Source: a virus (taxonomy: Duplodnaviria; Heunggongvirae; Uroviricota; Caudoviricetes). Taken from it: 21,331 bases of DNA. This document shows positions 9,001 to 12,000 of this stretch, piece by piece. Numbering within the stretch: the stretch's first letter is position 1; each line of letters begins with the position of its first letter. The position numbers are program-made. Location of the stretch: positions 1-21,331 of IMG/VR virus record IMGVR_UViG_2698536549_000028. One strand, written 5' to 3'.

Positions 9001-12000
9001 ACGAATTACAAATCCACGACCTGAAATATGGCAAAGGCGTCCGCATTGATGCAGAACAAAATGAGCAACTACAACTGTATGCTCTGGGTGCTCTCGAACA
9101 ATTCAGCATGCTGTATGACTTTGAGACTGTAAGATTATTTATTCACCAGCCAAGGCTCAACCACGTTTCAGAATGGTCTTTAACCGTACAGGAGCTTCAG
9201 TCTTTCGGTGAACGGGCACTGGAGGCCGCAACCAGTGCGATCCTTGTTCTCAATATTGCTGAATGCGAAGGCATTGAGACACTACCGCTGGAAAACTTCA
9301 TACCTGGAGAAAAACAGTGCCGCTTCTGTAAAGCAAAAGCTATTTGCACTGCCCAGAAAATGCAGCATTTACAAACAGCGGCCAGCGATTTTGAAGATCT
9401 GACAAAGCCTGTCAGCGAAATCATCACCAATGCCAGCGCACGTGTACCTCTGTTAACCATTGAGCAGCTTGCGGAGATCTATAGTCAGGCCGACTTTATT
9501 GAATCCTGGCTAAAGGCAGTACGGGACCGGGTTCACAATGAACTCAATGCCGGACATCCGGTACCGGGGTTTAAACTGGTAACAGGAAAACAAGGTAACC
9601 GGGCCTGGAGTGATGAAGAAGCCGCCCGCGCGCTGCTGAAAGACCAGTTCCGTTATAAAACCGAGGAGGTTTTCGATCTTAAGCTGATTAGCCCAACCAA
9701 AGCCGAAAAACTTATCAAAAAGGCCAGTCCGCGCCGTTGGTCAAAAGTCGAGGCACTGATAACACGAGCTGATGGTAAACCAACCGTCGTTCCCGAGTCG
9801 GACCCACGCCCCGCACTCAATATCAACCCTGTAAATGATTTCGACGACGTATCCGACGATACGCTCGCCGCAGACCTCATCTGATTAAAGGAGACTTTCA
9901 TGAAGATTAAATTAAATAACGTGAGATTAGCTTTTCCTGCTCTGTTTGAAGCTAAAACTGTAAACGGCGAAGGCGATCCGCGTTTCTCCGCAGTATTTTT
10001 AATGTCTCCCAAACACCCACAACTGGAAGAAATCCGTAAAGCTATGAAGCAGGTAGCGAAGGAAAAATGGGGGGAGAAGTGGGAGTCCATTTATAACCAG
10101 CTGGAGAAAAAACTCAATCTGTGCCTGCATGATGGTGATGAAAAAGCAGAGTATGAAGGCTTTCCCGGCAATTTCTTCCTGAATACTGCTAACAAAGCGC
10201 GCCCGGCCGTTCTTGATCGCGATCGTTCGCCACTGATTCAGGCTGATGGACGTCCCTATGCAGGGTGCTATGTAAACGCCGTTATCGATATCTGGGCACA
10301 GGACAATAATTTCGGTAAACGCATTAATGCCTCACTCGGCGGAGTCCAGTTCCTGCGAGACGGCGATGCATTCGCTGGCGGCGGAGTGGCAAGCGCTGAC
10401 GATTTCGACGATATCAGCGAAGGTGCTGATGCTGAAGCACTGATTTAATCCTGCTTCACAGACGCCCGGTTAAACGCCGGGTGTTTTTGCAAAGGGGAAT
10501 ATGCCCGGAGCTACCTGTATTGTTCTGGTTAGCACCCAGTCGCCCTGCTACCCCGATATTGACTCATCGCCCCCTTCCGGTTTATGCTCACCGAATCTCC
10601 CAAATGGAGATCGGGATTAGCACCCCGGAAGTTTAAGAGGCGACACCAGACGCGCCAGCGTCTTTTTTATTGTCGCAAGCTTTGCCACGTTCGCATTATG
10701 GCGGGCTGTGTGGGGGCGGAGAAATCCGCGCCGGTTCCTCTTAACCCGGTAGTGCTAACCCCGCACAGTTCGCCACCACGATGATTAGCACCTGATGGTG
10801 GCGATTAACTCAGTTAAGAGGAAAATCGTCATGAGTACCCAAATCGTATTCAAATCCCACGTTCTCGAAACGATCGAACATAACGGCAAAACTTGGTTTA
10901 CTGCGGCTACCCTAGCTACCGCGCTGGAATATTCGGATGCTCGCAGCGTAACTAACATTTACACCCGCAACACGGATGAGTTCACTCTCGGCATGTCCGA
11001 GGTAATCAAAATGGTTACCTCGGGGAATTTACAGGCCTCGCGCCGCATTTTCTCCCTCCGCGGTGCCCACCTGGTAGCTATGTTCGCAACAACTCCGGTA
11101 GCAAAAGAATTCCGCCGTTGGGTGCTTGACCTTATCGAGAAAGAAACCGCTGTTCCGCAATCCTCCACGATACTGGCGCCGCACAGGGAGTGTCTGCCGA
11201 AAATGGTTTACCATCACCGGAGCAAATACAATCCGTACAGGGCTTATGCATGGGACGGAGAGAAAAGCGTTTACGTCGGGTGCTATCCAACCGTGGGTGA
11301 GGCTGTTGCAGCTCAGGAACGCTTCTACCGGAATGGCAGCACGAAACGCATTCAGAAAGCGCAGCCAGCAGTCAGTGACGCAGAGAAGGAAATGTTCATC
11401 AACAATCTCCGCGCCGTCTGTCATAACTTCCGGCGCATCAACGAAATCTGGCGGGCGCAGTTAATGCCTGCTCTCGAAAAAATGGATTCGAAACTGGTTT
11501 ACCAGTTGCATGACCGCTTCAGCGACAGCATGTGCATTCTGCCGACCATAGAAGACCGCATCGGCAGATATATCCCACCCACTTTACCTCGTTAATCCTT
11601 CAGTTCGCCCCTGCTCAGCCAGGGGCTTTTTATCACCGTTTAATTTACGGAGGACTTCGTTTTGTCTGAAAACACTGATTTAAAAAAGCAAAGTATCAGA
11701 CCTGTAATATCATTTAGCCTGATACTTACTTGCATCTATTTTCAATAATTGGGAATTATACTTCTTTATAACGCCTCGTCCCGGAAAAAGAAACCAAAAC
11801 ATAAAAGCCATCCATATACACAGCAACATTAAAACAGCGCCCATTCCTATAAAAACAGCGCCATAATTTAACGACCAACAGAAAAATATCAAGCCATCAG
11901 CCAAATAAAAGATAGAAACAACTTTAGAACACCAGCGACATCGTTTGTATTTACCTTTGTAGCGTATAAAGAATCTATCGTATTTACACTGAATATGGGG

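Follow-up and report, generated by a model that had tools for sequence, protein, structure and literature searches.

In phages P1 and P7, the c4 RNA of the immI region is described as repressing Ant synthesis, and its precursor is described as a substrate of ribonuclease P (RNase P). In Gifsy-1, the isrK promoter drives a downstream antirepressor gene whose message is left untranslated, and transcription of this operon was abolished by deletion of the promoter (Hershko-Shalev et al. 2016, PMC4825925). IsrK supplied in trans raised the translation of anrP 139-fold and its transcription 8-fold, the mutant pairs G28A/C162U and G31A/C159U behaved as a base-paired helix, and both Hfq binding and trans activation by IsrK are known only for Gifsy-1 (PMC4825925). 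The same authors reported a stable processed RNA, STnc1160, at the position of C4 and a likeness of their locus to the seqA/CI region of the satellite phage P4, whose immunity is described as premature transcription termination (PMC4825925). IsrK and STnc1160 are both highly expressed in lysogens. Here, we analyzed a stretch of 21,331 nucleotides (the window) that makes up positions 1 to 21,331 of the IMG/VR virus record IMGVR_UViG_2698536549_000028 and that comes from a Stx2a-converting prophage of Escherichia coli. The results indicated that positions 10559-10830 form one RNA immunity module of the P1/P7 immI, P4 and Gifsy-1 isrK type, in which a C4 antisense RNA controls an antirepressor gene; we put the probability of this reading at roughly 85%. 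Support for it comes from membership in known RNA families, predicted folds, complementarity, covariation among three partners and the specificity of cognate pairing. Between 10460 and 11595, the promoter, RNAs, RNA targets, terminators and antirepressor gene described below are all on the plus strand.

The 5' part of the module is a small RNA of the IsrK family. A consensus scan placed a sigma-70 promoter, TTGACT-N18-TATGCT, at 10559-10588, which is the sole plus-strand promoter-like site between 9500 and 12000 and the positional counterpart of P_isrK in Gifsy-1 and of P1c4/P2c4 (P51b/P51a) in P1; in 13 loci, a matching -35/-10 geometry was found 6 nucleotides ahead of the first position of the isrK model. 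The RNA itself, of about 75 nucleotides (10595-10669, Rfam RF01394), is composed of hairpin 1 (10595-10611), hairpin 2 (10612-10627) with the element a1, TTAGCAC, in its loop (10617-10623), a single-stranded element b1, TTAAGAGG (10633-10640), and a terminator stem (10648-10663) followed by a T-run. In an Rfam scan of the window, the isrK covariance model RF01394 scored 54.4 bits at 10595-10668, against a gathering score of 50. The c4-a1b1 model RF03163, which describes the a1 and b1 targets of C4, did not reach its gathering score of 46.7 bits in a laxer scan, in which it gave 30.6 bits at 10582-10631 (E = 1e-4). As expected of an isrK gene, the element is bounded by its own promoter and by a Rho-independent terminator, and a C4 gene follows about 25 nucleotides downstream. 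A sequence-only reading of the window had pointed to this promoter, the two hairpins and the terminator, all of which were recovered at the same places by the consensus scan and the folds; its suggestion of an independent small RNA of about 75 nucleotides is supported by the isrK gathering score and by a promoter geometry like that of P_isrK, which was defined by experiment in Gifsy-1.

The C4 gene lies at 10694-10780. The Rfam model RF01695 matched it at full length (model positions 1-87) with 76.1 bits, against a gathering score of 45. Its minimum free energy fold (-48 kcal/mol, z = -5.4) has a closing stem of 17 base pairs, a first hairpin, a second hairpin whose loop, TTCCTCTTAAC (10735-10745), is the element b', and an 8-nucleotide junction, AGTGCTAA, that holds the element a', GTGCTAA (10752-10758). 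This shape, with a closing stem, two hairpins and a junction of about 8 nucleotides, is shared by the 14 loci that we compared, P1, P4 and Gifsy-1 among them. The junction is the reverse complement of the TTAGCAC motif and the loop is the reverse complement of the TTAAGAGG motif, so this one RNA bears the complements of both elements of the IsrK-type RNA. At its 3' end an unpaired ACCA (10775-10778) resembles the end of a tRNA; the mature C4 is predicted to be 10700-10777, and the stem start at G10700 and the unpaired ACCA agree with the annotated ends of P1 c4.

Both elements recur in the leader of the downstream gene. The target a2, TTAGCAC, was located by repeat search at 10785-10791, 5 nucleotides past the C4 match, and the target b2, GTTAAGAGGAA at 10813-10823, is a perfect 11-nucleotide match to the C4 loop b'. 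Thus, C4 is complementary to the leader over 7 nucleotides (a'-a2) and 11 nucleotides (b'-b2), and b2 lies at the ribosome-binding site: it includes the Shine-Dalgarno sequence GAGG (10818-10821), 9 nucleotides before the ATG of an antirepressor-type gene of 254 amino acids (10831-11595) with a Bro-N domain (Pfam PF02498, E = 3e-10), the product of which is named BRO-N domain protein in RefSeq. The earlier proposal that the region 10450-10830 controls the antirepressor gene at 10831 is supported. No icd-type small open reading frame (ORF) of the kind present in P1 was found between b2 and the Bro-N gene in an ORF scan. In addition, repeat search and folding revealed that TGGTGGCGA, at 10796-10804, is the complement of positions 10770-10778, which form the 3' strand of the stem that closes C4. 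The resulting alternative hairpin (-15.3 kcal/mol, z = -2.9), in which 3 of 9 pairs were changed on both sides among the 14 loci and 82.4% of cells were paired, would display a2 in a loop of the unprocessed read-through RNA.

The distribution of the motif agreed with this layout. TTAGCAC was found on the plus strand at 10529-10535, 10617-10623 and 10785-10791 and on the minus strand at 10752-10758, as the sequence-only reading had listed, with one further copy in the window at 12000; the three plus-strand copies lengthen to 11-nucleotide repeats, (T/G)G(G/A)TTAGCACC. When 10450-10830 was shuffled 5000 times with its dinucleotide content preserved, 86 of the shuffled sequences had four or more copies of any 7-mer on either strand (p of about 0.017), and among the real 381-nucleotide stretches of the window such a count was reached only here and in one other repeat cluster (2100-2600). 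A second triple has the same pattern: TTAAGAGG occurs at 10633 and 10814, and its complement CCTCTTAA at 10737, corresponding to b1, b2 (10813-10823) and the C4 loop b' (10735-10745). In terms of the immI scheme of phage P1, TTAGCAC is the 'a' element, an RNA-RNA pairing element, with a1 in the IsrK loop, a' in the single-stranded C4 junction and a2 just past C4. The small RNA and the leader control proposed earlier stand, while the role then given to the motif, that of a protein-binding site, was wrong, and both the second triple and the 87-nucleotide C4 gene that bears the two complements had been overlooked. Nor should all four copies be counted, on present evidence, as parts of the system: those at a1, a' and a2 belong together, and the one at 10529, upstream of the promoter, is an orphan.

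To compare the pairing elements among phages, 11 phage loci and P1 were fetched, and the compared set comprised 14 loci with 9 different 'a' sequences. isrK and C4 occurred in tandem in all 11 related phage loci, including Gifsy-1 and P4, and P1 showed c4-a1b1 followed by C4. The a1, a' and a2 sequences differ between loci but match one another inside each locus, and the same is true of b1, b' and b2. In an alignment of the 14 sequences, 6 of the 7 pairs of the a1-a' helix were changed on both sides, with 94.9% of cells paired, and 6 of the 7 pairs of the a'-a2 helix showed such double changes, with 93.9% paired. In a control, sliding the 3' partner by 1-3 columns reduced pairing over the whole tested structure from 76-78% to 32-55%. 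In the MAFFT alignment the C4 stem of P4 was shifted out of register, and the low pairing percentages of hairpin 1 and the terminator are an effect of the alignment rather than of structure. Because MAFFT left the b elements unaligned, the b sites were judged by anchored extraction and duplex energies. These energies were computed with the C4 loop and junction as the sole probes, since duplexes of full-length RNAs were uninformative. For each of the two targets, the cognate pairing (C4-IsrK or C4-leader) was the best in 14 of 14 rows when compared with the 13 other loci. In the window, the C4-leader duplex was predicted at -23.6 kcal/mol, whereas non-cognate combinations averaged -11.1 +/- 3.1, and the C4-IsrK duplex was predicted at -18.3 kcal/mol.

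Of all single comparisons, the sharpest was that with the sister prophage E. coli LH50-c, which has switched specificity. Its flank and its IsrK backbone are identical to those of the window, and all six substitutions across the 99 nucleotides of IsrK and spacer fall in a1 (TTAGCAC to TTTGCAA) or in b1; these substitutions are matched in a', b', a2 and b2. A wider census gave the same picture. Viral contigs were scanned with two patterns, the first of which (ATGGCGG...CGCCACC) returned mostly chance matches while the second was more specific, and together they yielded 66 unique C4-shaped RNAs. An exact a2 lay within 40 nucleotides of 62 of these 66 RNAs (0.4% for non-cognate 7-mers), and an exact a1 lay 80-91 nucleotides upstream of 58 of them (2.6% for non-cognate 7-mers). 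When 18 sampled loci, one per 'a' type, were checked against Rfam, 15 proved to be true C4 loci, with 16 C4 genes, each of which was preceded by isrK (16/16); the other 3 were false positives that passed the fold filter without reaching the Rfam C4 model, and the census is taken to represent about 63 viral C4 loci.

By analogy with the described systems, the module would operate in this prophage as follows. A constitutive promoter would fire at about 10595, and most transcripts would end at the terminator 10648-10669, giving the 75-nucleotide IsrK-type RNA with a1 in a loop and b1 single-stranded. Read-through would continue into C4 and then into the leader and coding region of the Bro-N gene, and C4 would be cut from this longer RNA, its 5' end probably being made by RNase P by way of the tRNA-like stem and the ACCA tail. 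The junction a' and the loop b' of C4 would then pair with a2 and b2 in the leader. Since b2 is the Shine-Dalgarno sequence, the start of ribosomes would be blocked, no antirepressor would be made, and the prophage repressor would stay active; once made, the Bro-N protein would presumably inactivate the phage's own repressor. The predicted IsrK-type RNA, which offers the same two targets and so appears to mimic the target of C4, would be the activating arm, either competing for C4 or refolding the long transcript. We hold the details of this arm with less confidence than the module as a whole, because the Gifsy-1 model differs from it and P4 uses termination.

Several points weigh against this account. 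The isrK score lies barely over its threshold, which we ascribe to a differing, shorter hairpin 1, and the c4-a1b1 model stays below threshold although the a1 and b1 complementarities are present. The homologous RNA of P4 works by transcription termination and not by blocking a ribosome site. In addition, the Gifsy-1 authors explain activation by the upstream orf45 and alternative folds rather than by titration of C4, and constitutive STnc1160 failed to counteract IsrK in that system (PMC4825925).

The alternatives differ in which molecule the motif is thought to address and at which step. The sequence-only reading had proposed TTAGCAC(C) as a candidate binding site for CI or the Arc-like proteins, so that its copies would be DNA operators acting on the antirepressor promoter. 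Four copies do lie within 265 base pairs beside a promoter, and P1 has a C1 operator across its c4 promoter, but no copy overlaps the -35 or -10 hexamer (the positions are about -66, +23, +158, inverted, and +191 from the start), and the inverted copy falls exactly within the unpaired junction of the C4 RNA. Moreover, the motif varies among related loci and yet remains complementary inside each of them, unlike a site for a conserved protein, and the unrelated motif TTAAGAGG has the identical three-way pattern. Because target and antisense sequences covary, we rejected the operator explanation, which is now extremely unlikely. A more serious competitor keeps all the parts and has C4 act mainly on transcription, as in P4, with ribosome occlusion secondary: pairing with a1 and b1 in the nascent RNA might strengthen termination at 10648-10669, or a translational block might lead to Rho-dependent polarity. 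The P4 seqA/CI region, which scores as isrK and C4, belongs to an immunity system described as working by premature termination, b1 ends only 8 nucleotides before the terminator stem, and IsrK in trans also raised transcription in Gifsy-1. Against this stand the placement of b2, which covers the Shine-Dalgarno sequence here and lies at or beside it in other loci, a scan that detected no intrinsic terminator between C4 and the ATG, and the translational effect in Gifsy-1, which at 139-fold is far over the 8-fold transcriptional one. We regard a mainly transcriptional action as unlikely, and occlusion of the Shine-Dalgarno sequence by C4 as the more probable main mode.

Two further proposals concern the products of the locus rather than the site of control. 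The C4 stretch could be, or double as, a small protein gene coupled to the antirepressor, as it holds an ORF of 28 codons with an ATG at 10698 and a stop at 10782-10784. In Gifsy-1 a tagged orf45 product was detected, and mutation of the first AUG of orf45 or an inserted stop lowered anrP activation. The stop of the window ORF, however, does not overlap the antirepressor start in the manner of orf45 (AUGA), but lies 47 nucleotides ahead of the ATG at 10831, which makes stop-start coupling impossible and translational coupling unlikely. The codon count also ranges from 14 to more than 58 among the 14 loci, the Gifsy-1 authors report nucleotide and not amino-acid conservation, and the covariation maintains RNA helices. 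A coding role is thus very improbable, and with the stop so far upstream and the length so variable among loci, direct occlusion by C4 is the simpler reading. It could also be argued that the IsrK-type RNA works mainly in trans on host mRNAs, as an Hfq-dependent small RNA, and that it resembles the C4 targets only incidentally. The Rfam family name does say 'Hfq binding', and prophage small RNAs of enterohaemorrhagic E. coli are known to act on host networks. But the sister prophage changed its IsrK at a1 and b1 only, and jointly with C4, a1 is exact in 58 of the 66 loci, and no host target was found here, although none was sought. We consider a chiefly host-directed role improbable; it does not exclude C4 antisense control of the antirepressor, with which it is compatible.

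The copy of the motif at 10529, termed a0, was considered separately. It lies in a weak plus-strand hairpin, CTGG-TTAGCAC-CCAG (10524-10538, -3.2 kcal/mol), and because it is 21 nucleotides upstream of the -35 hexamer it is outside the IsrK/C4 transcript. It is still TTAGCAC in LH50-c, whose a1, a' and a2 switched to the TTTGCAA specificity (its C4 reads TTGCAAA), and none of the 12 other phage loci has it. A second upstream copy of the motif was present in only 2 of the 66 viral loci, in both cases within coding flanks, which rules out a0 as a general feature of the family; a chance match within 300 nucleotides is expected at about 2.6%. The a1 hairpin may once have been duplicated and left a0 behind as a relic, or a0 may be a chance match; any effect of it would require that transcription of the upstream operon read through. 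On such read-through RNA it might serve as a third decoy, made only when transcription reads through from the replication genes, with the IsrK-type RNA as a dedicated sponge for C4. If this were true, C4 would be titrated during early or replication transcription, and the antirepressor would thereby be released, but we give the idea little credence.

A second antisense lock, of the sRNA-Xcc1 type, lies at 14397-14640 and appears from its sequence to guard a paralogous antirepressor gene. A promoter-like TTGACT at 14397 is followed by a short, hairpin-forming RNA and its terminator (about 14440-14485), and then by an RNA of the sRNA-Xcc1 family at 14510-14594 (RF02221), whose 53.0 bits are exactly the gathering score. 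The loop of the latter, CUGACG, is complementary to CGTCAG, which occurs in the short RNA and again at the Shine-Dalgarno sequence (14617-14622) of an antirepressor gene with an AntA domain (14634-15404, ATG at 14634). This gene and the one at 10831-11595 are paralogues: their C-terminal 180 amino acids are 79% identical, whereas their N-termini are AntA and Bro-N, respectively. The RefSeq start of the second antirepressor is about 240 nucleotides downstream of the ATG at 14634 and would remove most of the AntA domain. Like the IsrK/C4 module, the Xcc1-type module has a short terminated RNA, then a structured RNA with a GCCACCC-type 3' end, and a loop that pairs with both the short RNA and the Shine-Dalgarno region; it differs in belonging to a separate Rfam family, in having three internal hairpins and in its sequences. 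The same three-way logic, with other sequences, was also found in phages P13771 and phi330. If the sponge arrangement with a0 were real, this orthogonal lock at 14634 would add a second, independent RNA threshold to the induction of the Stx2a prophage and the release of toxin.

Locks and genes were found in different combinations in related prophages. In E. coli O121 201805972, CFIAFB20190157 and LH50-c the RNA locks are shuffled between genes. CFIAFB20190157 carries a TTTGCAA-type IsrK/C4 module after the DNA polymerase gene and ahead of the Ant protein WP_000235335.1, which in the near-identical reference prophage of strain 89-3156 occupies the position behind the window's Xcc1 module; O121 201805972 is arranged likewise, except that its Ant is a related protein. 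In CFIAFB20190157 an Xcc1-type RNA is also fused directly upstream of the IsrK promoter. Several phages (L244, L127 and L130) have two locks close together, within about 1.5 kb, with IsrK/C4 present twice in some and C4 beside Xcc1 in others; in the IMG/VR contig L244 the two locks lie at 2146-2331 and 3731-3916. Multiple orthogonal locks per phage seem to be common.

The reference for the surroundings of the locus is strain 89-3156, which is 99.8% identical over 501 bases around 10450-10830. Its RefSeq features are, in order, stx2AB, tRNA-Arg, the Q antiterminator, a VapE-domain protein, a LexA-family repressor (5172-5852 of the window), DUF2800 and DUF2815 proteins, an unannotated gap of 383 nucleotides, the BRO-N protein, DNA polymerase, the second antirepressor, Arc-family proteins, a Rha-family protein and an integrase adjoining yfhL. 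The IsrK/C4 module is the gap that this annotation left blank. The region or portions of it were matched in 362 of 5426 complete E. coli genomes, with at least 80% coverage in only 6, and BLAST placed the module in 285 phage records, mostly of Stx phages but also of P4. The left edge of the module is the intrinsic terminator of the upstream DUF2815 gene (9900-10448); it lies at about 10460-10488 (-17.9 kcal/mol, z = -3.85, followed by TTTTT) and was missed by a simple scan but found by folding. A LexA box near the promoter was also considered, and the sequence CTGTATTGTTCTGG at 10506-10519, read by eye, does not fit CTG-N10-CAG.

Two other observations were made in the window. The Rha-family gene is one coding sequence of 244 amino acids in 89-3156, whereas the window has two ORFs, 17031-17441 (with a Phage_pRha domain) and 17434-17826; a shift of about 190 nucleotides in the offset between window and reference near 17031-17826 suggests an indel or frameshift. 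At 2372-2623, adjoining the end of the VapE-domain gene (2626-4887, minus strand), AGGTGAC occurs nine times (4 on the plus and 5 on the minus strand); the copies form inverted pairs and tandem doublets that surround an AT-rich core. The whole window holds 10 copies against 2 expected, a count reached in 0 of 100 shuffles, and the cluster resembles an origin of the iteron type or an array of operators.

The module is a new copy of a known RNA switch, and the kind of mechanism is not new. It would come as no surprise to a specialist, and its main value lies in annotation and in the biology of Shiga-toxin (Stx) phages: a 383-nucleotide gap contains a complete RNA switch by which an antirepressor is probably silenced. 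Because antirepressors can bring about prophage induction while the repressor stays uncleaved, the RNA locks are candidate determinants of the switch-on of Stx phages and of the timing of toxin. The comparison of sequences also shows that isrK and C4, which Rfam names as separate families, each make up one half of a single conserved module; the available literature treats IsrK and c4 as separate systems, and a 2025 review still handles them as unrelated items.

Among the described systems, P4 shares with the window an isrK match (the seqA region) followed by a C4 match (the CI RNA) in Rfam and the three-way complementarity of the a and b elements, and part of the window sequence matches P4 directly by BLAST; its two RNAs, in contrast, are separated by a spacer of about 100 nucleotides. 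According to work reportedly from Deho and Ghisotti, the P4 RNA acts by termination on the replication operon and not on an antirepressor.

Gifsy-1 differs from the window in several respects. Its ORF of 45 codons ends in a stop that overlaps the start of anrP, whereas the corresponding frame of the window has 28 codons and ends well upstream. Its 'a' element is TTGGCGT instead of TTAGCAC, its b specificities differ too, its downstream protein is not detectably similar to that of the window, and its locus is beside the Q antiterminator while that of the window is in the replication region. Nevertheless, the two share isrK and C4 in tandem ahead of an antirepressor gene, the same promoter geometry and a terminator that passes some transcripts. 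The orf45/STnc1160 stretch of Gifsy-1 is a gathering-level C4 match (69 bits, 34131-34214, minus strand), with which orf45 coincides because it begins at an AUG in the 5' end of this match. The a1-a' pairing has been proven in Gifsy-1 by compensatory mutants: with numbering from the start of the Rfam match, the first members of the two mutant pairs (G28 and G31) fall in a1 and the second members (C162 and C159) in a', both of which are P1-type elements.

The comparison with P1 was based on its GenBank annotation, which lists the promoters, a1, b1, c4 (77 nucleotides, 3344-3420), a2 four bases past c4, b2 and icd as the first gene. In P1 an icd-like ORF is present, whereas in the window b2 lies right on the Shine-Dalgarno sequence of the antirepressor itself. 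The window's a1 and b1 are in a separately terminated IsrK-type RNA, while P1 has no isrK match at the gathering score; P1 has a C1-type operator at its promoter, and none was seen in the window. The Bro-N protein is unrelated to Ant1/2, and the a and b sequences differ. With these differences, the window and the immI regions of P1 and P7 have the same order of promoter, a1, b1, C4 (with b' in a loop and a' in a junction), a2, b2 and first gene, at near-identical spacing, with a2 4-5 nucleotides after C4 and b2 at the ribosome-binding site, and they share the C4 fold, the tRNA-like 3' ACC(A) and an antirepressor as the output.

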